Source: a virus (Duplodnaviria > Heunggongvirae > Uroviricota > Caudoviricetes). Taken from it: DNA of 64,000 nt. How positions within the stretch are numbered: the stretch's first letter is position 1; the number at the start of each line of letters is the position of its first letter. The notes below the pieces were generated by a model. That model was given only the letters and a program-made list of their open reading frames with translations. It was not told where the DNA came from and made no database searches. A program made the translations under genes and the position numbers. Shown here piece by piece: positions 18,461 to 57,477 of this stretch. Location: positions 323,539 through 387,538 of the IMG/VR virus record IMGVR_UViG_3300028888_000044. The stretch is one strand, 5' to 3'.

Positions 18461-18562
18461 CTAATCATAATGAGCAAAAGCACCAGCTTTCACAAGCTAA
18501 TGCTTTTTATTACCCCATAAAAAAAAAAGGAGATGATATTATGGAGGTATGAAAAAAAGTGT

Positions 18563-18651
18563 TGGTAGAGATGGATTTGAACCACCGAAGCCTCATAAGA
18601 GGCGGCTGTGCCACTAAACACAGCCCCATTTGACCGCTTTGGTATCTACCG
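18563..18651 (-). tRNA. type-II tRNA-like gene, atypical anticodon loop (tRNA-like 1)
   Basis: revcomp cggtaga-ta-cca-aagcggtcaaa-tgg...gcctcttatgaggc(long variable arm)-ggtgg-ttcaaat-ccatc-tctacca-a. It has U8, a 3-bp D stem, GG in the D loop and a 5-bp T arm with TTCAAAT loop. The 1:72 pair is C:A. The anticodon region ctgtg-tttagtgg-cacag gives an 8-nt loop containing TAG. Confidence 0.5.
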
Positions 18652-18653
18652 AA

Positions 18654-18745
18654 TGGTTGATAGAGAGGGATTCGAACCCCCGAAGCCTCCGAAGAGGCGG
18701 TTGAGCTACTAACACAACCCCATTTGACCGCTTTGGTATCTATCG
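18654..18745 (-). tRNA. type-II tRNA-like gene with encoded CCA (tRNA-like 2)
   Basis: About 80% identical to tRNA-like 1; cgataga...ggggg-ttcgaat-ccctc-tctatca-a-cca. The anticodon stem has a T:T mismatch and a loop ttagtag. Confidence 0.5.
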
Positions 18746-20853: not shown

Positions 20854-21016
20854 AGTTTTATTTGTTTTTAATGTTAGTAATTGTTTTAATTTCACGGTGC
20901 AAAGATAGTGAAAAAATCAATACGCCACAACTTTTTTGACACCATTAACAAAACTTTAACCAATATGTTAAATTAGTGTTAAAGTACCAGAAATATTTGG
21001 AATTGTCACCAAAAAA

Positions 21017-21050
21017 CACTATCTTTGCAGCGAGGGAAAGAGCGTACAGC
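21017..21050 (+). promoter_or_regulatory. conserved box CACTATCTTTGCAGCGAGGGAAAGAGCGTACAGC (copy d)
   Basis: Exact reiteration; 20966..20984 TGTTAAATTAGTGTTAAAG lies upstream; GTCATCAGATGGCAC + A-run lies downstream. Confidence 0.5.
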
Positions 21051-21189
21051 AACTTGTCATCAGATGGCACAAAAAAAAGGACACCCGACAGTAGTCGGAT
21101 GCCCTCCCAAACAAATCTTACTAACCTTAAAAACACGTTGTAGCTCAGATGGGACTCGAACCCATACGGTCGAATGACCAAGGGATTTT

Positions 21190-21970
21190 CTTACTACTCT
21201 TGCTTTGATACAAGCCAACTTCGTGAGTTGTTGTAGTCTGGACTATTTCTTCACCATGCCAATTTGGTTTAGGTGTTTCGTATATAGTCTCTACGCCATT
21301 TAGGATAAATATCCATTTAGTAAGCCATCGCCAAAGTTTATGTCACCATAAACAAGGTTTCTGTTTGTTAGCGAAATTCTACTTCCCAATATTTTTTATT
21401 TATTGTTTTTTCCTTTCGGAAAGGAAGCACTCTTAATGTTTAGACCTCGATAATTATCTGTTTGTGCGTGGCAATTAGGGCATAAAATTTCAAGATTCTC
21501 TAATCTATCATCGGTTGTTATTCCATTTTTATGGTGTAACTCCAATGGTATTTTTTTACCCATCCATTTTGTAAGCCCACAACATTCACATTTTTCTTCT
21601 TTAATTTGTTCTCTAAAAAGCCTATTTTTTAATTTATAAGAACTATAATGAGAATTCTCAACTAATAATTCATCGGTTTTTATTTGGCGTTTAGGATTAA
21701 ATTTTAAACCTATATTCCAACCTTTACCCGTAAAATGTGAAATATCAATTTCATACTTTTCAATAATTTTATGAAGAGTATTATAATTCCCACCACAAGG
21801 TTTTAAATTAAAAAACCTAAGCATTTCAGCAATACTATGTGAACATTTTGCTGCTTCTACATATTCTTCTTTCGTTCTTTCTTTTCTCATATCATATTAC
21901 TTTAATAATAAATAGTACGATATGAGAAAAAGTAATCACGAAATTATGACTATATTTTGGTCTTTACCAA
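21190..21970 (-). mobile_element. group I intron (781 nt) carrying an HNH ORF
   Basis: Inserted between U34 and A35 of the Leu anticodon. The 5' exon ends in U and the intron ends in G. P7 R/S-like elements GCGTAGAGACTATATACG and AAATAGTCCAGACTAC lie in the 3' 200 nt. Confidence 0.65.
21396..21890 (-). CDS. intron-encoded HNH homing endonuclease
   Basis: LELHHKNGITTDDRLENLEILCPNCH HNH motif plus CECCG zinc knuckle. Confidence 0.75.
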   Translation of the reverse strand: MRKERTKEEYVEAAKCSHSIAEMLRFFNLKPCGGNYNTLHKIIEKYEIDISHFTGKGWNIGLKFNPKRQIKTDELLVENSHYSSYKLKNRLFREQIKEEKCECCGLTKWMGKKIPLELHHKNGITTDDRLENLEILCPNCHAQTDNYRGLNIKSASFPKGKNNK

Positions 21971-22050
21971 AAGTCCCTCGCGTCTACCAATTCCGCCACT
22001 GAGCCATCATTTTTGCTATTATATAAAATAAATATAACAAACAAAAAAAA

Positions 22051-22233
22051 TTAAGCTCTTAAGGCTTCAAGTTTTTGCTCTATTGCCTTTGGTGTGATAG
22101 CTTCACCGCCACCGAAGTAAACTGTGCCGTAATAGGTGTCATCGAAAGAGTCATAGACTTCATAACGGCCATTGCCGATAAAGCTCAAGTCCACTTCTCC
22201 ATAACCTTTAACGTAATATGATGTCTTCTTCAT
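22051..22233 (-). CDS. hypothetical small protein
   Basis: ORF; start chosen at MKKTSYYVKG. Confidence 0.4.
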   Translation of the reverse strand: MKKTSYYVKGYGEVDLSFIGNGRYEVYDSFDDTYYGTVYFGGGEAITPKAIEQKLEALRA

Positions 22234-22300
22234 TGTTGTAAGTTTCAAATTAAAAGGGGTGCTTGCTTTTCTTCGGAAGCACCCCAACAGTGAAAATTAG

Positions 22301-48445: not shown

Positions 48446-51400
48446 ATGGAGATAACTAATAGTATTGTCAAGAATTGTTTAACTGAATATGTACAAGATA
48501 GGTTTCAATTATTGACTGAAGACCAAAAAAGAACAATTCGCAACAAAATAACAAGGGTTGTTTCATCAAGAGTACCTCATAGTGTTGATGATACCCAAAT
48601 GATTGAGAAATTGGTTGATGATATATGGAATACATATGTTCTTCACCCACTTCACGATGGGGTTCATCATAGGCAAAATGATGAAATCACTATAATCAAT
48701 CAGAACATTGAAAGATTGATTCCATATGTTATAAAGCAAAAAAGTGATAATGAATCTGAAAATGTTACTTACTATATTACAACAAATCCAAGAATTCGCA
48801 ACAGTTGGGAGAACTTGATACAAGCACAAAGGCAGAATAGAAATGTAACTTTGTGGAGAGATGATGGTGGTGATTTGACTTATTGGGATGTAAACAAACG
48901 TTATAATGATGCGATAAATTCTGCTAAAAACACGAAAATTGAAGGCAAGTACCATTACTCTGTTTACAAGGTAGAAAACTACGATACACCAATTGAAGGG
49001 TTGGGAATGACAGTTAGAGAACTTGGACAGTATACTGGTGGAAAAGGCTCGCTAAGCTGTGTACCGTTGTGCTATACACAATCTCTAAATACGTATAACA
49101 ATTACACAAAAGGCAATGAATACAATATGTATGCTCTACTGCGTGACGGTTGGCAGAATGAACCATGCAAAATGACAGAAGGTTATCCATTGGATAGCTA
49201 TGGTCTTTCTATGATATTCGTCATAATAAGTCCTACTGGAAATATAGTAAACAACAATGTAAGATGGAATCACGGCCCAAATGGGTATCCAAGAAGTGTT
49301 GACAACATATTCACTTATAAGGAATTGACAGAAATTGTTGGTAGCGATGTAATGGAACAACTTAACACTACTATTGATGTTGACCAATCGTTACGTTTGA
49401 CATATGAGGTTGAAACTAAACTTAAAGAAGGTCAAGATATTAACGACATATTTACTTCTAAAGGTAAAGAATGCTGTGGTTATATACCAGTTTGTTATAT
49501 GCGTAAATGGAATATTATTGATTCTTCAAAGTCATTGTTATGTGACGAATGGTTCGATGGTATTGGCGCTTTTCATCCAAATGGTTTTTGTTATGTTTGT
49601 AAGAACCACTTATATAACTTTATTGATGTTAATGGAGAATTTGTTTGGGATAGACCGTTTGAAGAATGGTTTGATTCCATTGATTCGTGGTCATTTGATG
49701 ATAATGGTTTGTGTAAGGTTATGAATCACTATAAGTATAATTGGTTAAAGACTGATGGTACACTATTATTTAATAACCAACAACAAGAATGGCTAAATAA
49801 TGCTGGTGATTTTCATAATCAAATTGCTTATATAAAATTACATGGTAAATACAATTATATTAGAACTGATGGCTCATTTGTTTGGGATTATGATGACACA
49901 CAATATTGGTTTGATGATGTTGCTGATAAAGGTTTTAATAACTCCAATGTTGCTGTGGTAACAATTGACAGATTGGTTAATTTATTGAAAACAGATGGTA
50001 CACTAGTTTGGAATAAATCACCCGAATTATGGTTTAATGCCATTGTTAATAATAGTGTTAACGATGGGATATTCCAAGTAAAACGTAGCAATAAATATAA
50101 TTTCCTAAGAATGGATGGTACATTGGTTTGGCAGAAACCTTTTAATGAATGGTTTACATCAATTGGAGCATTCTATAATGGTTTGGCAAAAGTAACTACA
50201 TCATTTGGTGAAACATATAATTTTATTAAAATTGATGGAACATTGCTGTTTGACGAAACAGATGATACAAAACATTTTGATAAAACTGGTAATTTCGCTA
50301 GTGGACCAGCATTTGTTTGCATAAATAATAAATATAATTTCATTAGAGAAGACGGAACTTATATTTGGGATAAACCAATAGGACAATGGTTTGATAGTGT
50401 TAGCGAATATTTTAGAGAAGGTTTTGCTTGTGTGCGCAAGAAAGGAGTTGCAAATTTTATATCTACAGAAGGAAAGTTGTTATGGAAGAAACCATTAAAA
50501 GATTGGTTCAGTGGTGTAGACCCTTTTTATCAAGGGATAGCACAAGTACGAAAGAATGGCAAAAGTAATTACATACGAACAAACGGGAAATTAGTTTTGA
50601 ATAAACCATTTGATGAGTGGTTTTTATGGATGGGTGAGGTTATAAATAGCCCTAATATATTTATTGTAAGAGATGCAATGAGATATAACTATATTAAAGA
50701 TGGCGAATTGTTATATAACCAACCTCGTACAAAATGGTTTACTGATATAAGCAGAATACTTGATAAAATCAATGATAATATATCTGGCTTCCTTGTACAA
50801 AAGGGATATAAGTACAATTTCTTGAAACTTGATGGAACACTTCTCAATAGCAGTTTCGTAAGTAAAAGTGAATTAGAATCTATAATTCGAAGAATAAAAC
50901 ATCAATCGTCCAATATACAAGAATCCTTAAGGGAATATGTAACTAAAAATTTACAACTTCTTACTGAAGACCAGAAGAAGACAATTCGTAACAAGATTGC
51001 AAGAGGTATTGTTTCAATGACTAATCTTGATGTAAACAGTACTGAAGTACAATCGTTAGTAGATAATGTTTGGAATACATATGTTGTGCATCCAGTTGAA
51101 GGAGAGAAGCGACAGAATGACGAGATTACTGTTATTAATCAGAACATTGAAAGATTAGTTCCGTATGTCTTGAAGCAAAATGATTCTGAAAATTACTTTA
51201 TAAGCAACAATCCAAGGATTCGTAAAAGTTGGGAAAACTTGATACAAACCCAAAGGCAGAACAGACAAACCAAGCTATGGCAAGACAATGATAATTTGCT
51301 TTATTGGAATACCAATAAAAAGTATAATGATGCAATAAATGCCGCAACAAGTGAAGAAATTAAAGGCAAGTATCATTATAGTGTGTATAAGATAGAAGAT

Positions 51401-54400
51401 TACCATACGCCAATTGAAGGCTTGGGAATGACTGTTACAGAACTTGGCAAGTATACTGGTGGGCAAGGCGCAGTGCCTTTGTGTTATACACAAGGTGAAT
51501 CAACATATAACAGTTATACTGAAAACAATCAATTTAATATGTATGCTGTGTTGCGTGATGGATGGCAGAATGAACCTTGTGAGATTGAAGAAGATTATCC
51601 ATTGGATAGCTATGGTTTATCAATGATATTTGTCATTATTGATGAAAATGGAAAGATTGAATACAGTAATGTAAGATGGAATCACGGTCCAAGAAATTAC
51701 GCAAGAAGTGTTGACCACATATTCTCGTACAATGAATTGAGGGATATTGTTGGAAGTAATGTAATTAAGCAAGTTGGTGCACATGTAGAAATAGACACAT
51801 CGTTACAATTGACATATGAGGTAGAGAAAAAGTTAAAACAAGACTTATCTATTTACCAAATATTTGGTGATGTTGGCTTTTTTAAGGACGGTTTGGCAAA
51901 GGTTTACTATTCTGGTTTATTCAATTACATAGATTCATCTGGAGACTTACTAACTGATGAATGGTTTGATTCTTGTGCTCCATTTCAAAATGGGCTTGCT
52001 GCGGTACGAAAAGGACAAAAGGTAAATTATATAAAGACAGACGGTACTTATTTATACAACACAGATAATACTGATGATTGGCTTACTATGGCTTGTGATT
52101 TTGATGAAAATGGTTCTGCTATCGTTGGAAAGAATAATAAATACAATTTTATTCTAAAAGATGGCACATTCATTTGGAAAGGTGAATGGTTTGATTTGGT
52201 TGGTGATTTTATTAATGATATTGCTCTAGTTAAAAAAGATAACAAAGCTAATTTTTTAAGATTTGATGGTACATTAGTTTGGAATTATGAAAATACAAAT
52301 GATTGGTTTGATGATGCTACTAATTTTAGTGCGGATTATAATATCGCAGTGGTACGAAAAGGAGGTAAAGGTAATTATTTGAAGACTGATGGTACATTGG
52401 TTTGGAATTATCTTGACACAAAGAAATGGTTTGATACTGTTTGCCATTTTTATGATGGTTTAGCTCAAGTTAAAATCAACTATAAGTATGAAGAAAAATG
52501 GAACTACCTCAAACTAGATGGAACTTTTTTATGGAAGAAGCCATTAAAACAGTGGTTTGATAATGCTTATAGGTTTGATGAAGGTGTTGGTATAATAGAA
52601 TATAAAGGTAAAAACAATTGGTTAACAACCAAAGGTGAAATATTTTGCCCAGATATGTGGTTTGATTGGGTTGGAACATTTCACAAAGGGATTACTAAAG
52701 TAGAAATAAACGGTAAATTTAACTTTTTAAATAGTAATGCTAAGTTATTGTGGGGGTCTTACGATGACACAACAGATTGGTTTGATTACGTTGAGAGGAT
52801 TGAGCAAGGATATGCTAAAGTAAGAAATCAAGGACGTTGGAACATATTACGACCAGATGGTAAATTATTGTGGGATTATCCAAATCCTCAAGATTGGTTT
52901 AATAATATGGGTACACTTGATAAAGAAGAAATAATATATGTTTCAAAAGATGGTAAAAGTAATTATTTAAATCTTCAAGGTAAACTTCTAAGCCAAAATT
53001 GGTTTGATAGTTGTTTTGTATTTGAGAATGGCGTTGGTAAAGTTCAAAAAGACCAACGCATGAATCTAATCAGAAAAGATGGCACATTTGTATGGAACAG
53101 ACCATTGAAAGATTGGTTTATTTTCATTGGTGAAGTAGACTCATTTGGTAATTCAGAGGTATACACGCATTATCAAGGTGCAACAGTTGGTAACTTATTG
53201 AAAATAGAAGATGGTACGTTACTGTGGAAGAAAAGTCCAAAATTATGGTTTCGTTACATTGACGTTAATAAGATATTACCAAATGGTGTAAAAGGTTATA
53301 GAGTCTCCAAGACAACAAAGACTATGATGAAGTATAACTTCTTAAAGTTAGATGGTACTCTTCTTTTCAAAACATTTTTATCTAGTCACAGCTATAATTT
53401 GGCAATGCATACTTTAAGGGATAATGATAATCAAATAATACAAGAATCTTTACGAGAATATGTTAAAGATAAGTCGTTGTTGGCTGAAGCAGATTCACGA
53501 ATTAAGGGAACTAGAAACGCAATTAAAAGGGGTATTGCTGCAATAACCAAACTTGACATTAATGACCCTATTGTAGAAAACTTGACCAATGATGTTTGGA
53601 ATACTTATGTTGTTCATCCTATCGCAAATGAAAATCGTCAGCTTGACGAATATATTGCCATTAGGAATAATGCTGACAGACTTCTTATGTACGCGGTAAA
53701 ACAGAACCAAGATGGCACATATTACATAACAAAAAATCCACGTTTGAAAAATGGCTTTGAGAATCTTATTCAAGCACAAAGGAAAGACAATACAAAACCA
53801 ATACTTGATAATAATGCAAATTTGTTCCAATGGTATAACACACAGAAATACAATCAAGCATTGGAAAACTTACAAGCCAATAGTAAAAAAATACTGAAAG
53901 GTCAATATAGTTACAAAGCATATCCAATCACTGATTTTTATGATAACATTAAAGGCTTGGGAATGACTGTTAAAGACCTTGGGGAGTGGACTGGTAGTGA
54001 AGAAGCTGTCGAATTGTGCTATACTCAATTTGAAAATACGTATAACCAATATACACACGGCAACAAATACAATATGTATGCTTTATTGCGCCAAGGTTGG
54101 CAAGACGAGCCTTGTGAGAAAGGAGAAGGCTATCCTTATGACAGCTACGGTCTTTCTATGATATTCGTAATTATCGATGATAATGGTGATATAGCTACAA
54201 GTAATGTTAGATGGAATCACGGTGACAATTCTTATTCTAATGTAGATAATATGTTCAACTATGCTAAATTAGTACAAATTGTTGGTTCTAATATACTTAA
54301 TAAAATACATTGTACATATAATGATGACATAACTCGTAATATGTCACTTATAGTAAGACTTGAAAAAGCTTTAAGCAATATCGATGCAACTGATGTTGAT

Positions 54401-55591
54401 TCGTTTTTTGATGTTTTCAATAACATTTCATACCAATATGAAGATTTGGAAAATGTTGAGCTATTTACTCTTGGAAGTGATAGGCTAATAACAGTAGAAT
54501 ATGAAGAAACATATGCAAATATATATGATATAAAAGAGAAGCATTTTATTTCAGATGAGTGGTTTTCTAGTATTTCGAATTATGAATGCGGCTATAGTGC
54601 AGTACAATTCTTAAATGATGGAACATGGAATTTTATTGATGAAGAAGGTAATTTTTTAAATGACAAGCGTTATGACCACTGTTATGATTTTGACAACGGA
54701 TACGCTGTTATTAAAAATAATCAAGAAATGTATGAAGTAATAAATATAAAAGGTGAAACATTGTTTACTACAGATAAACTAGTCAGGATTATTGGAGAAG
54801 AACGTGTAGCTTATGAAGCATCTAATTATTCCTTATTATTGGATATGAGCGGTAAAAAAGTAGTTGACACATATTTTGATTATATTGGTTATTGTTACTG
54901 CGAAGGATATATTACAGTAAAAGTTGATAATAGAGTTAATTTTATAGATGCAAATGGAAAATATTTATCAGACGTTTGGTATGTTGATATTGAACAACCA
55001 TTTTCAAACGGATGCGCTGTTGTTAAGTGTGATAATTATCTTATAAATATGATTAATAAAAAAGGTCAAAAGCTACTTAAAGAAGATGCTATAAGATGGA
55101 AAACAATATATGATTCTAAATATGAGAATATATTGTACTATATATTTGATTTAAGACAGTCAGACGGTCATATTAAAGAATTTGTAAAAACAAACGGTCA
55201 AATTATATGTGATGCTCTAACTTTTAGTGAAGCAAATCACCTTAAGATGTTAAAAATTCAATTTTTAGATGAAAGTTGGAACTATTTAAAAGAAGATGGT
55301 ACAATGTTATTACCATATACTTGTTATGAAATTTCAGATTTCTATGAGCACTCTTATAATCAAGATATAAAATTTGCAATTATCAAAAAAGAGAAAAATA
55401 AAGAATGTGTTATTGATGTAAATGGAAATGAAATGACAGAAGAATATGTTGCAATGTATCCTTTAGCAAGAACTGAAAACTATGTTGCTTTAGGTGTAAA
55501 AGGTCCAGAAGATGGTTACAAAATTGATTGGCAGTTTAATGCAATAAAAATAAGTAAGGATGAGCTTGTTGATATGATTATGAATAATTAA
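48446..55591 (+). CDS. giant 2381-aa protein: three tandem ~800-aa modules, each an N-terminal conserved domain followed by WG-repeat arrays, plus a distinct C-terminal region
   Basis: Module starts near aa 1, ~815 and ~1640 all contain LREYV.K.LQLLTEDQK.TIRNKI... and the conserved block YHYSVYK..GLGMTV.ELG.YTGG..CYTQ..YNMYALLRDGWQNEPC..YPLDSYGLSMIFVII..NVRWNHG. Dozens of YNFI..DGT..W...WFD WG-type repeats follow each. Confidence 0.7.
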   Translation: MEITNSIVKNCLTEYVQDRFQLLTEDQKRTIRNKITRVVSSRVPHSVDDTQMIEKLVDDIWNTYVLHPLHDGVHHRQNDEITIINQNIERLIPYVIKQKSDNESENVTYYITTNPRIRNSWENLIQAQRQNRNVTLWRDDGGDLTYWDVNKRYNDAINSAKNTKIEGKYHYSVYKVENYDTPIEGLGMTVRELGQYTGGKGSLSCVPLCYTQSLNTYNNYTKGNEYNMYALLRDGWQNEPCKMTEGYPLDSYGLSMIFVIISPTGNIVNNNVRWNHGPNGYPRSVDNIFTYKELTEIVGSDVMEQLNTTIDVDQSLRLTYEVETKLKEGQDINDIFTSKGKECCGYIPVCYMRKWNIIDSSKSLLCDEWFDGIGAFHPNGFCYVCKNHLYNFIDVNGEFVWDRPFEEWFDSIDSWSFDDNGLCKVMNHYKYNWLKTDGTLLFNNQQQEWLNNAGDFHNQIAYIKLHGKYNYIRTDGSFVWDYDDTQYWFDDVADKGFNNSNVAVVTIDRLVNLLKTDGTLVWNKSPELWFNAIVNNSVNDGIFQVKRSNKYNFLRMDGTLVWQKPFNEWFTSIGAFYNGLAKVTTSFGETYNFIKIDGTLLFDETDDTKHFDKTGNFASGPAFVCINNKYNFIREDGTYIWDKPIGQWFDSVSEYFREGFACVRKKGVANFISTEGKLLWKKPLKDWFSGVDPFYQGIAQVRKNGKSNYIRTNGKLVLNKPFDEWFLWMGEVINSPNIFIVRDAMRYNYIKDGELLYNQPRTKWFTDISRILDKINDNISGFLVQKGYKYNFLKLDGTLLNSSFVSKSELESIIRRIKHQSSNIQESLREYVTKNLQLLTEDQKKTIRNKIARGIVSMTNLDVNSTEVQSLVDNVWNTYVVHPVEGEKRQNDEITVINQNIERLVPYVLKQNDSENYFISNNPRIRKSWENLIQTQRQNRQTKLWQDNDNLLYWNTNKKYNDAINAATSEEIKGKYHYSVYKIEDYHTPIEGLGMTVTELGKYTGGQGAVPLCYTQGESTYNSYTENNQFNMYAVLRDGWQNEPCEIEEDYPLDSYGLSMIFVIIDENGKIEYSNVRWNHGPRNYARSVDHIFSYNELRDIVGSNVIKQVGAHVEIDTSLQLTYEVEKKLKQDLSIYQIFGDVGFFKDGLAKVYYSGLFNYIDSSGDLLTDEWFDSCAPFQNGLAAVRKGQKVNYIKTDGTYLYNTDNTDDWLTMACDFDENGSAIVGKNNKYNFILKDGTFIWKGEWFDLVGDFINDIALVKKDNKANFLRFDGTLVWNYENTNDWFDDATNFSADYNIAVVRKGGKGNYLKTDGTLVWNYLDTKKWFDTVCHFYDGLAQVKINYKYEEKWNYLKLDGTFLWKKPLKQWFDNAYRFDEGVGIIEYKGKNNWLTTKGEIFCPDMWFDWVGTFHKGITKVEINGKFNFLNSNAKLLWGSYDDTTDWFDYVERIEQGYAKVRNQGRWNILRPDGKLLWDYPNPQDWFNNMGTLDKEEIIYVSKDGKSNYLNLQGKLLSQNWFDSCFVFENGVGKVQKDQRMNLIRKDGTFVWNRPLKDWFIFIGEVDSFGNSEVYTHYQGATVGNLLKIEDGTLLWKKSPKLWFRYIDVNKILPNGVKGYRVSKTTKTMMKYNFLKLDGTLLFKTFLSSHSYNLAMHTLRDNDNQIIQESLREYVKDKSLLAEADSRIKGTRNAIKRGIAAITKLDINDPIVENLTNDVWNTYVVHPIANENRQLDEYIAIRNNADRLLMYAVKQNQDGTYYITKNPRLKNGFENLIQAQRKDNTKPILDNNANLFQWYNTQKYNQALENLQANSKKILKGQYSYKAYPITDFYDNIKGLGMTVKDLGEWTGSEEAVELCYTQFENTYNQYTHGNKYNMYALLRQGWQDEPCEKGEGYPYDSYGLSMIFVIIDDNGDIATSNVRWNHGDNSYSNVDNMFNYAKLVQIVGSNILNKIHCTYNDDITRNMSLIVRLEKALSNIDATDVDSFFDVFNNISYQYEDLENVELFTLGSDRLITVEYEETYANIYDIKEKHFISDEWFSSISNYECGYSAVQFLNDGTWNFIDEEGNFLNDKRYDHCYDFDNGYAVIKNNQEMYEVINIKGETLFTTDKLVRIIGEERVAYEASNYSLLLDMSGKKVVDTYFDYIGYCYCEGYITVKVDNRVNFIDANGKYLSDVWYVDIEQPFSNGCAVVKCDNYLINMINKKGQKLLKEDAIRWKTIYDSKYENILYYIFDLRQSDGHIKEFVKTNGQIICDALTFSEANHLKMLKIQFLDESWNYLKEDGTMLLPYTCYEISDFYEHSYNQDIKFAIIKKEKNKECVIDVNGNEMTEEYVAMYPLARTENYVALGVKGPEDGYKIDWQFNAIKISKDELVDMIMNN

Positions 55592-55956: not shown

Positions 55957-57477
55957 TTAAAAATCGTTAATAGTGCTTTCCATCATTTCTATATCCACCT
56001 CACCTTTATCTATACGCTTGCTTTCCAACAAGAAGAAAGCCTCTGTTTTAAGCTTAAATGCTTCTTTTAATTCATCGCCAACGATTCTCAATACAAAGCC
56101 TTCACGAGGTACTTTATTATGACAAAGAGGTTCATTCTTTTCCATGAAGAATCTTTTTTCCTTACCAAGAAGTTCAAGTACATTTTCATGCCAATGATTT
56201 TCGGTATCGACTTCTGGGTAAAAATCAGCCAACTTGCCACGGAAAAGCACGTCAAGTACGAAAAGTCTGTCAGCAATTTCTGGGCGTTCATTCATTAGAT
56301 TCTTAGTCCAATTTATTACTTCATCAACTTCCCATTCTTTTTTAGAGCCATCTTCGTTAGTTGTCGTTATTCTATATGGCATAAATTTATTATGACCAAC
56401 TTCACATCCATAATCGTAATTTCCAGTAGCAAACATTTTTTGCAAACCAGTTTCGTAGCCAAAAATTTCACCATAAACTGTCATACCTTCTTGTATAGCC
56501 CCTTTCAATATCTCGTTATATTCTGCCCATACGTCTGTTTTATAATAACATTCTGTGCTATTTTCGTTGATATATTGGTTTCTAATTTGGTGTCTAGATG
56601 AATATATGGTATCATATACATATTCTATCTTTTGTAATTTGATAGGCAATGAATGGCAAACCTTATTCACTATATTGGTTAGCCAACCAAATGGTGTACT
56701 ATATTGCTTTGGTCTTTTTGTTAGAACATTTGCAAATATTGCAGAAGTGCCATGTATTTTAGTAGTGATAATTACTTCAGTATCTGGTTTAATCAAATTA
56801 AAATTCTTCTTAAGTGGCTGTGTATCATAATGAAAGAAGAATTGGCCTGGAATCATTCGGTCATATCGTTTGATTTTCTTTTGGCTCCACGTATATTCTC
56901 GTACAATTCTTTTTTTCTGTGGTATATATGGAACATATGCTTTGATAAACAATTCACCATTGACTGTATCAAAGTCGTAACCTATATAATCCTTCAAATT
57001 GATATTAACTATTTCTGGACAAAACTTTGCCATTGTTTCAATACTAAACAAGAAACCGCTAGAATCAACACCTCTAAGTCTAATCATTTTTACTCTTCGG
57101 TGTTTGGTAAAAAAACCAGTGTTTTCTTTAATCAACGATTCCAATCTTGAAACTTCTTCCAAATCTTGATTTGTTTTTGCCAATTGAAGCTGTGTAAGGA
57201 TTTTACCTACTTGAACCGCATTTGCGTTCTTGTCGAATTCGCTTTGTTCAAACAGATTATTTACTGACAAGAATCGTTCATTTAGTTGTGTTTCGTTTTC
57301 AGCATAGAACATCAAATCACCTTGCTTTACCAAATCTCGTCTGACTACAATTGTTTGTCCGTTTACTTTTGTTGATGCAAGAAAATCAGAATTTGGTATA
57401 GGTTCAATCTCACCAACCTCAATGATTGACGCACAGTATTCGTGGTTTATATGTTCTGATTGTTCTAGTATTTTCAT
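55957..57477 (-). CDS. ATP-dependent RNA ligase, Rnl2-like
   Basis: Nucleotidyltransferase motif I TKIHGTS (KxHG, as in T4 Rnl2 KIHGTN) and downstream GEIFGY motif III-like. Confidence 0.55.
   Translation of the reverse strand: MKILEQSEHINHEYCASIIEVGEIEPIPNSDFLASTKVNGQTIVVRRDLVKQGDLMFYAENETQLNERFLSVNNLFEQSEFDKNANAVQVGKILTQLQLAKTNQDLEEVSRLESLIKENTGFFTKHRRVKMIRLRGVDSSGFLFSIETMAKFCPEIVNINLKDYIGYDFDTVNGELFIKAYVPYIPQKKRIVREYTWSQKKIKRYDRMIPGQFFFHYDTQPLKKNFNLIKPDTEVIITTKIHGTSAIFANVLTKRPKQYSTPFGWLTNIVNKVCHSLPIKLQKIEYVYDTIYSSRHQIRNQYINENSTECYYKTDVWAEYNEILKGAIQEGMTVYGEIFGYETGLQKMFATGNYDYGCEVGHNKFMPYRITTTNEDGSKKEWEVDEVINWTKNLMNERPEIADRLFVLDVLFRGKLADFYPEVDTENHWHENVLELLGKEKRFFMEKNEPLCHNKVPREGFVLRIVGDELKEAFKLKTEAFFLLESKRIDKGEVDIEMMESTINDF

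Follow-up and report, generated by a model that had tools for sequence, protein, structure and literature searches.

How a leucine tRNA can be obtained from a gene that is cut in two within its anticodon is the question raised by a stretch of viral DNA of 64,000 nucleotides (nt), which comprises positions 323,539 to 387,538 of the IMG/VR record IMGVR_UViG_3300028888_000044 (Caudoviricetes) and is called the window in the following. All coordinates count from the first letter of this window. The two halves of the gene lie on its minus strand and enclose an insert of 781 nt. In cyanobacteria and plastids, the group I intron of tRNA-Leu(UAA) is a textbook example of an intron of ancient origin. 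Based on the gene structure, a fold derived from covariation, the membership in an intron family, an intact open reading frame (ORF) for an HNH endonuclease and the pattern of conservation, we assume with a probability of roughly 0.88 that the insert is a group I intron, which carries an HNH homing endonuclease gene and resides in a functional phage tRNA-Leu(UAA) gene.

The split gene and the core of its insert

An earlier note on this DNA had proposed that two minus-strand segments assemble into a complete type II tRNA. This is borne out by ARAGORN in intron mode, which calls a tRNA-Leu(taa) at c[21140,22005] with a mature length of 85 nt and an intron of 781 nt at 'gactt-Intron-aaaat'. Together with a read-back of the coordinates, this call confirmed the proposed break between U34 and A35 as well as an insert that follows a U and ends in G, and all pairings described before are in place: the acceptor halves GGCUCAG/CUGAGCU with G1·U72, the anticodon stem AGGGA/UCCCU and the loop CUUAAAA. 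The tRNA has a long variable arm, a D stem of 3 bp and A73, and its anticodon is UAA once the exons are joined (ARAGORN with and without intron). The exons spliced in silico are also recognized as tRNA-Leu(UAA) by ordinary ARAGORN, and the predicted ligated junction reads ...GGGACUU|AAAAUCCC.... Neither default ARAGORN nor the Rfam tRNA model detected a continuous tRNA at 21100-22050 on the minus strand. The codons UUA and UUG account for 46% of the Leu codons in the long ORFs of the window.

Additional evidence for a functional gene comes from the only close relative, an IMG/VR contig of 120,399 bp (L005/L344; contig Ga0247608_10000173, IMG 3300028805) with an identity of about 95% to the window, in which the same split gene occurs. 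The exons differ at 7 of 85 positions, among them compensatory exchanges of C:G to U:A in the D stem and of A:U to G:C in the T stem, which suggests that the tRNA was kept functional between both lineages.

Regarding the identity of the insert, a blastn search revealed that its 3' 200 nt resemble unannotated DNA of a crAss-like phage and of Lak phages. Scans of IMG/VR and GTDB with the 15-mer AATAGTCCAGACTAC from the region of the P7 3' strand and J7/9, in combination with RGAGACTA upstream, yielded about 50 and 42 loci, respectively, which with few exceptions lie in tRNA anticodon loops; cyanobacterial matches to the 15-mer in the GTDB scan were discarded as chance matches within protein genes. 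Three members of this family provide the link to established group I introns, as they match the Rfam model RF00028 (Intron_gpI) over its full length with 56 bits (L088, gathering score 50), 49.1 bits (L061) and 45.8 bits (L303). Used as single nhmmer queries, the introns of L088, L061 and L303 match only positions 21142-21391 of the window (E 2e-11, 7.5e-10 and 4e-14), in colinear alignments that start in J2/3 and reach the 3' exon. Furthermore, we built a covariance model (R1) from 23 subfamily members (alignment A2), from which the window and its close relative were left out. R1 matches the window at 21385-21190 from end to end with 208.7 bits (E 2.6e-47) and without a second match in the 64 kb; the alignment spans the full model, with one non-standard pair flagged in P9. 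The same model scores the Rfam-positive members L088 and L061 at 94 and 91 bits. A coincidence is excluded by the R1 match and by the recurrence of the split gene in the 95%-identical relative, where exon differences compensate each other.

The fold itself is supported by covariation in an alignment of 16 sequences, in which 97.9% of the cells are paired, compared with 31-42% if the partners are slid against each other. Compensatory double changes occur in 26 of the 45 pairs, and none of 500 shuffles reached any of these measures. The signal is carried by P3, P5a, P6a, P8, P9 and P9.1, with compensatory changes in five of five pairs of P9 and in two of four pairs of P9.1, while P9.0 shows only a change from U:A to U·G. 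The strands follow each other in the order of the group I pseudoknot, namely P3 5', P7 5', P3 3', P8 and P7 3' (Table 1). The P7-type R and S elements that had been noticed in the last 200 nt, GUAGAGACUA and AAAUAGUCCAGACUAC, are indeed present and form P7 (GACUA/UAGUC), and the 5' strand GACUA is invariant in all 16 and in all 23 aligned members. Together, the family link, the R1 score and the covariation support the previous assignment of the insert as a group I intron at U34/A35.

Some pairings were considered and rejected. An extension of P7 by GUAG (21295-21292) and CUAC (21236-21233) does not fit, since its 5' strand varies (GCAG, ACAG) without compensation; CUAC 21236-21233 pairs instead with the GUAG just before the terminal G (omega-G) and forms P9.0. 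A pairing of CUUACU (21324-21319) with the AGUAAG of the 3' tail lacks covariation. The omega-G is the terminal base in 19 of 22 distinct subfamily cores, and the extracted fragments that end in A are those of L009, L037 and the mis-trimmed L030. For L009 and L037 (both IMG/VR), the 7-nt loop CUCUAAC requires an intron end ...GUAGUACA, and thus a terminal A in place of the otherwise universal G.

Table 1. Features of the split tRNA-Leu(UAA) gene and its insert, given as window positions and ordered along the minus strand.
Feature	Position	Strand	Remarks
tRNA-Leu(UAA) 5' exon, nt 1 to U34	21971..22005	minus	ARAGORN intron mode and read-back; sequence GGCUCAGUGGCGGAAUUGGUAGACGCGAGGGACUU
P1 5' strand, exon ACUU and intron UUGG	21967..21974	minus	splice site after 21971; complementary to 21436-21429 with U34·G
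Local hairpin UUUUGGU-AAAG-ACCAAAA	21955..21972	minus	potential mask of the 5' splice site, in place of the long-range P1; -5.5 kcal/mol, z -2.0, weak
Predicted group I intron, 781 nt, after U34	21190..21970	minus	UUGGUAAAGA...GAGUAGUAAG; ends in omega-G 21190; model R1 covers 21385-21190
Strong hairpin, 51 nt, with ORF ATG (21890-21888) buried in its 3' arm	21881..21931	minus	-19.6 kcal/mol, z -5.1
Putative HNH homing endonuclease ORF, 164 amino acids, in the P1 loop	21396..21890	minus	PHROG 10822
Internal guide sequence, P1 3' strand UUAAGAGU	21429..21436	minus	within the last ORF codons
P2 GCUUCC/GGAAGU with inner hairpin P2a UUUCC-GAAA-GGAAA	21381..21428	minus	ORF stop codon in P2a loop; minimum free energy fold, z -3.05
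J2/3 AGAA	21377..21380	minus	precedes P3
P3 5' strand UUUCG	21372..21376	minus	pairs with 21280-21276; compensatory changes in 4 of 5 pairs
J3/4 CUAACAAA, P4 CA/UG, J4/5 GAAA, P5 CC/GG, P5a hairpin, J5/4 CGA, P6 C:G, P6a hairpin	21297..21371	minus	
P7 5' strand GACUA, within R-like element GUAGAGACUA	21285..21289	minus	matches Rfam consensus AGACUA in homologue alignment
P3 3' strand CGAAA	21276..21280	minus	between the P7 strands, giving the P3/P7 pseudoknot
P8 hairpin CACC...GGUG, inner CCA/UGG	21252..21275	minus	covariation, 100% of cells paired
J8/7 AAGAAA and P7 3' strand UAGUC (S-like, 21245-21241)	21241..21251	minus	invariant; matches Rfam consensus AAGAUAUAGUC
3' domain: P9.0 CUAC/GUAG, P9 21230-21216, P9.1 21214-21199, tail UAA, omega-G 21190	21190..21236	minus	
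tRNA-Leu(UAA) 3' exon, A35 to discriminator A73	21141..21189	minus	no encoded CCA; ARAGORN; sequence AAAAUCCCUUGGUCAUUCGACCGUAUGGGUUCGAGUCCCAUCUGAGCUA
Hairpin and U-run resembling an intrinsic terminator	21075..21108	minus	33 nt downstream of the tRNA; fold z -3.7

The distant guide sequence and the HNH reading frame

The earlier note could not identify a canonical P1 with its internal guide sequence (IGS), but such a helix exists, although its 3' strand is located far from the 5' splice site. The segment AACAUUAAGAGUGCUUCC (21440-21423) contains the IGS UUAAGAGU, and its pairing (21436-21429) with ACUU|UUGG yields a P1 of 8 bp, in which U34·G21432 marks the splice site. The IGS lies 530 nt downstream of this site at the 3' end of the ORF, and as it pairs from there, the HNH ORF has to be regarded as an insertion into the P1 loop. 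The same arrangement is seen in 11 ORF-bearing Leu(UAA) introns, in which the element 'aaGAGUGC' is found 443-530 nt from the 5' splice site, while in ORF-less Leu(UAA) introns it stands directly before P2. Furthermore, the IGS covaries with the exon throughout the family, with ACUU/GAGU in the tRNA genes for Leu(UAA) and Lys, CUCU/GGAG in tRNA(CUA) and CUU/GAG elsewhere. The homologous P2 shows compensatory differences in L008, L026, L035, L254 and L249. The local hairpin UUUUGGU/ACCAAAA was also considered as P1, but it pairs U34 with A instead of G and is weak (z -2), and therefore the distal IGS is preferred.

The HNH endonuclease of 164 amino acids predicted before corresponds to an ORF at 21890-21396, which matches PHROG 10822 'HNH endonuclease' over residues 2-155 with an E-value of 1.4e-43. 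Matches to the Pfam families HNH_3 and HNH are weak and below the cut-offs, and a sequence search of the PDB with the ORF gave nothing significant. The motif with the zinc ligands and the catalytic residues is intact: C101-x2-C104 ... H-H119-x-N-G ... N131 ... C137-P-N-C140-H141 is invariant in the ORF and nine intron-encoded homologues. The last dozen codons of the ORF coincide with the IGS, the 5' strand of P2 and P2a. Due to this overlap and the burial of the start codon in a hairpin, translation and folding of the ribozyme are probably mutually exclusive. The start-codon hairpin, which is a predicted fold, may in addition have a regulatory role.

Proposed splicing and competing explanations

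In analogy to the established group I mechanism, and in agreement with the pattern of conservation, we propose self-splicing by the two-step pathway initiated by guanosine. The precursor would be a single transcript that ends at the terminator at 21108-21075, in which the helices P2 to P9.1, including the P3/P7 pseudoknot, build up the group I core of the intron. The IGS UUAAGAGU and ACUU/UUGG would then form P1 with U34·G as the wobble pair at the site of cleavage, and exogenous guanosine would attack after U34. In the second step the freed 3'-OH of U34 would attack after the terminal G 21190, which P9.0 (CUAC/GUAG) is expected to bring to the P7 pocket, while the anticodon stem would hold both exons together. 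Ligation would produce the loop CUUAAAA and thereby a functional tRNA for the codons UUA and UUG.

Several observations weigh against this interpretation. The Rfam model RF00028 gave no match on the full window at the gathering score nor on positions 20900-22300 at E<=10, and ORF-less members of the subfamily do not reach it either. The earlier note had suggested an Rfam group I check and had regarded the lack of a covariance-model match as decisive against an intron. This view is too strict, as a match is literally lacking for RF00028 only, while the group I assignment is obtained from the family members, the model R1 and the covariation. We attribute the miss to the 530-nt insertion in L1 and to the atypical P4-P6 domain of the subfamily and not to decay, as the ORF-less members are missed as well. 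Nevertheless, P4 consists of two supported pairs and P6 of one invariant pair, and the lack of variation in P7, P5 and most of P9.0 means that covariation neither supports nor contradicts these helices. In addition, P1 has to form across 530 nt and in competition with the local hairpin at the splice site. Concerning mobility, an intron-less allele of this phage tRNA was not found in IMG/VR or in the JGI metagenomes, and, as the single relative bears the intron junction, the contrast in divergence described below is the sole argument for homing in this lineage.

The atypical P4-P6 domain deserves a closer description. One of the two P4 pairs varies between A:U, G:C and C:G in perfect step and the other one is C:G, the hairpins P5a and P6a covary, and the pairs of P5 and P6 are invariant; the remaining strands of the domain are invariant too and fit no Watson-Crick register. 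Extending P4 by further Watson-Crick pairs, in the register seen in classical members, was rejected, since it conflicts with the covarying pair 24/59 of the 196-nt core fragment. These properties are among the arguments for a rather unlikely alternative, according to which the insert is a real group I derivative that is not self-sufficient and needs a protein to fold and splice, either its own ORF product in the role of a maturase or a factor supplied by host or phage. The sparse P4 and P6, the failure of RF00028 across the whole subfamily and the overlap of the ORF with IGS and P2 would all fit such a dependence. On the other hand, ORF-less members of 196-250 nt with the same atypical P4-P6 are widespread in phage and chromosomal tRNA genes, and therefore the core seems to work without the ORF product. 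Furthermore, the invariance of the atypical strands points to a conserved tertiary solution and not to decay.

If the insert were a decayed relic without splicing activity, the split tRNA-Leu gene would be a pseudogene. The absence of an Rfam match on the window would fit this very improbable scenario, but several features speak against it: every core helix is intact and R1 matches over its full length with its one non-standard pair in P9, the P1 with its U·G as well as the omega-G are present, the ORF has its full length and an intact catalytic motif, the compensatory exon changes retain the tRNA structure between two lineages, and the gene has its own terminator. Removal of the insert by proteins, i.e. 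by an endonuclease together with a phage RNA ligase, is suggested by an RNA ligase gene in the window (55957-57477, minus strand; PHROG 968, E 7e-44), but we consider it extremely improbable, as a bulge-helix-bulge motif is missing, a complete group I signature with covariation is present and chromosomal as well as phage homologues of the intron occur irrespective of such a ligase in the genome. Finally, a junction one base further 3', which would result in the loop CUUUAAA and an ochre-suppressor tRNA(UUA) instead of tRNA-Leu(UAA), can practically be dismissed. The runs UUUU on the 5' side and AAAA on the 3' side permit this register on tRNA geometry alone, but the intron would then end in A and not in G, the splice-site U would be opposite A21433, ACUU|...G|AAAA is common to all Leu(UAA) homologues, and TAA is an ordinary stop in the window with in-frame TAAs at the ORF ends. 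Reading TAA as a sense codon lifts the open-frame coverage of the window from 54% to 88%, yet the in-frame TAAs cluster at the ends of ORFs, and the gain is therefore an artefact of the AT-richness and not a sign of recoding.

Proposed mobility, relatives and known systems

We propose that the intron spreads by homing, in which the HNH enzyme would cut intron-less tRNA-Leu(UAA) genes and repair would copy the intron in. A comparison of the window with its close relative L005 revealed a difference at 1 of 781 positions in the intron, in contrast to 81 of 1381 in the neighbouring DNA (Fisher p 3e-15) and 7 of 85 in the exons (p 5e-7), and on the two sides of the insertion site the first exon difference is met 8 nt upstream and 25 nt downstream, respectively. 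Thus, the tract of low divergence coincides with the intron, a pattern to be expected if homing was recent and its co-conversion tracts were short. IMG/VR contains abundant intron-less tRNA-Leu genes that share the anticodon arm of the window's gene, but none of them is closely related to the window. The phage gene has the same anticodon arm, the probable recognition site, as chromosomal genes of Prevotellaceae and Bacteroidaceae; elsewhere the phage tRNA differs.

Within the family both ORF-bearing and ORF-less alleles exist at the same site. The ORF-less Leu(UAA) intron of 230 nt in L062 (634-950, IMGVR_UViG_3300045988_139151), a contig that is also binned as a metagenome-assembled genome (MAG) of the Acholeplasmatales (L259), retains 'gacagataactataggtctaaaat', a remnant of the HNH C-terminus (TDNYRGLN), and looks like a loss of the endonuclease gene within the homing cycle. 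Other members, which reside in different tRNA genes, have related HNH genes in different loops, namely L1, P6 and P8: the ORF ends at J6/7 in L084 and L072 and runs into P8 and the P7 3' strand in L068, L244, L260 and L301, and L010 and L093 contain a different HNH family in the same intron family. This suggests repeated and independent invasions of peripheral loops by endonuclease genes.

The GTDB matches derive mostly from MAGs of Bacteroidales, comprising Prevotellaceae, Bacteroidaceae, Rikenellaceae and Cryptobacteroides, and their neighbours are ordinary chromosomal genes such as those for peptidase S46, PAP2, FtsW/RodA, rhamnogalacturonan lyase or a short-chain dehydrogenase/reductase (Pfam adh_short). 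The tRNA-Leu(UAA) genes of these genomes contain the same subfamily at the same site, and at least 11 of these introns carry an HNH ORF of 160-162 amino acids, which is 59-64% identical to the one in the window at the amino acid level and also ends over 'aaGAGUGC' and P2. Many chromosomal tRNA-Leu(UAA) genes of Bacteroidales are split in this way, with or without HNH ORF (L229-L343; e.g., L266 5829-6186, L296 154-922 and L303 4444-4755), and ARAGORN often mislabels them as Ser(tga), Phe or Tyr due to the ambiguity of the boundaries.

In phages, ORF-less members of about 205-245 nt are found in tRNA genes of the crAss-like phage cr115_1 (NC_055898.1; L001 1429-1729) and of Lak-B1 (L002 1430-1747), and further ones in L019, L043, L046, L050, L052, L095, L088 and L009. 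If spliced by group I rules, these tRNAs have the anticodon CUA and are amber suppressors, which the intron calls of ARAGORN misname as Ser(cga), His, Arg, Leu or Pro. Therefore, suppressor tRNAs of gut phages with recoded stop codons appear to need group I splicing. The tRNA-Leu(UAA) gene of Lak-B2 (MK250021.1, L003 ~872-1615; also L006, L067, L069 and L099) even seems to contain two group-I-like introns. The first one, of about 300 nt and with GCAGAGACUA...AUAUAGUCC, is inserted in the D loop after ...AAUUGGU, and the second one resides at U34/A35, is homologous to the intron in the window and has a P1 of the type CUU|AAA...UUUGAG and a large insertion in P8. In four other IMG/VR loci (L033 1764-2211, L039, L079 and L085) there are two adjacent matches to the family model, and a tRNA-like sequence GGCGGAAUUGGUA...GGGUUCGAAUCCC is embedded after the P7 3' strand of one copy, which recalls the 'intron that encodes a tRNA' reported for Lak phages.

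It is possible, although we regard it as a tentative idea that is somewhat more likely to fail than to hold, that the intron in the window is one visible member of a large and essentially unclassified population of mobile group I elements in phage tRNA genes, to which the introns in amber-suppressor tRNA(CUA) genes of crAss-like and Lak phages with a recoded stop codon would also belong and which is shared and exchanged with the tRNA-Leu(UAA) genes of Bacteroidales hosts. In such a scenario the intron in the window would have been recently acquired or re-homed, its HNH enzyme would be able to cut tRNA-Leu genes of rival phages and of hosts, and splicing of suppressor tRNAs would act as a checkpoint of the code switch. 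Judged from its sequence, the locus may serve as a fully dissected example of a phage tRNA intron that is a group I ribozyme, and it indicates that introns of this kind can carry a homing endonuclease gene in the P1 loop. The presence of the same family in tRNA-Leu genes of the hosts suggests a traffic of introns between phage and host. Furthermore, standard tRNA and Rfam annotation misses the gene entirely, and the tRNA repertoires of phages are therefore under-counted, which also concerns the suppressor tRNAs behind the recoding of stop codons. Relatives without ORF are compact, at about 200 nt, and are candidates for new self-splicing scaffolds.

The surrounding DNA belongs to a poorly characterised phage, as only six ORFs of at least 350 amino acids are present in the 64 kb and few have PHROG matches; an ORF of 2381 amino acids (48446-55591, plus strand) is without one. 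On the minus strand, two type II tRNA-like genes of 91-92 nt are arranged in tandem at 18561-18651 and 18654-18745. Their anticodon loops are odd, with a 7-nt UUAGUAG beside a U·U mismatch of the stem in one case and the 8-nt UUUAGUGG in the other. ARAGORN reports them as Thr(agt) and '???(tagt)', and both stay below the Rfam tRNA gathering score. They are 99% conserved in L005 against a background of about 95%.

The closest known counterparts are the tRNA-Leu introns of Bacteroidota, which share the gene, the U34/A35 site and the subfamily with the window and contain the ORF in the P1 loop with its C-terminus over 'aaGAGUGC' and P2. HNH-type homing endonuclease genes in tRNA-Leu(UAA) group I introns of Bacteroidota are listed in a figure legend (mSystems 2026, PMC13011429, Fig. 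6), and the same article gives 12 of 333 for the rare ORF-bearing tRNA introns. The intron described here differs in that a phage genome harbours it and the interrupted tRNA is of the phage type, with G1·U72, without an encoded CCA and with divergent acceptor, variable and T arms; at the nucleotide level it is no more than 67-73% identical to the chromosomal introns. A known bacterial group I intron with a homing endonuclease gene in a tRNA anticodon loop concerns another tRNA, is inserted at site 33/34 and encodes an enzyme of the PD-(D/E)XK type instead of HNH.

The proposed connection to the ancient intron of cyanobacteria and plastids (IC3 lineage) is supported for the insertion site and the architecture only; the similarity in primary sequence to the intron of Anabaena is weak. 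For this comparison the 3' half of the Anabaena tRNA-Leu intron was available from the supplement of Wesselhoeft 2018 (PMC6035260). Gene and U34/A35 insertion point are the same, P1 is formed on the exon CUU with U·G, and the order from P2 to P9 agrees. Both introns share the blocks GnAGAGACU...AAGAnAnAGUCCA and are colinear in the 3' half (GGUGCAGAGACUC...AAGAGAGAGUCCA in Anabaena against GGCGUAGAGACUA...AAGAAAUAGUCCA in the window), and P7 differs by a compensatory change from C:G to A:U. However, nhmmer gave no match with the intron alone and an E-value of 1.5e-4 only with exon 2 included, and the Anabaena intron has no ORF, while the window's P4-P6 is atypical.

Among phages, the introns of T4 td, nrdB and sunY and of the SPO1 DNA polymerase gene with the HNH enzyme I-HmuI are likewise group I introns with homing endonuclease genes, in which the ORF is looped out from a peripheral helix and overlaps the core (PMC3984707), but they interrupt protein genes and not a tRNA gene. 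According to the same review from 2014, all phage introns known at that time were in protein-coding genes, despite the many tRNA genes of phages. For Lak megaphages, 'introns in phage tRNAs' are described but not classified in the article of Devoto et al. (2019, PMC6784885), with 'group I' and 'self-splicing' nowhere in the text, and a survey of jumbo phages from 2026 (PMC13037316) only mentions 'intronic sequences' of tRNAs. In our analysis the Lak-B genomes contain the same intron family in tRNA genes, including tRNA-Leu(UAA) with the same site, and the copies seen are without HNH ORF. Consequently, this kind of intron is already known; judged from the literature examined, the novelty lies in its occurrence in a phage and in the detailed analysis of this copy.

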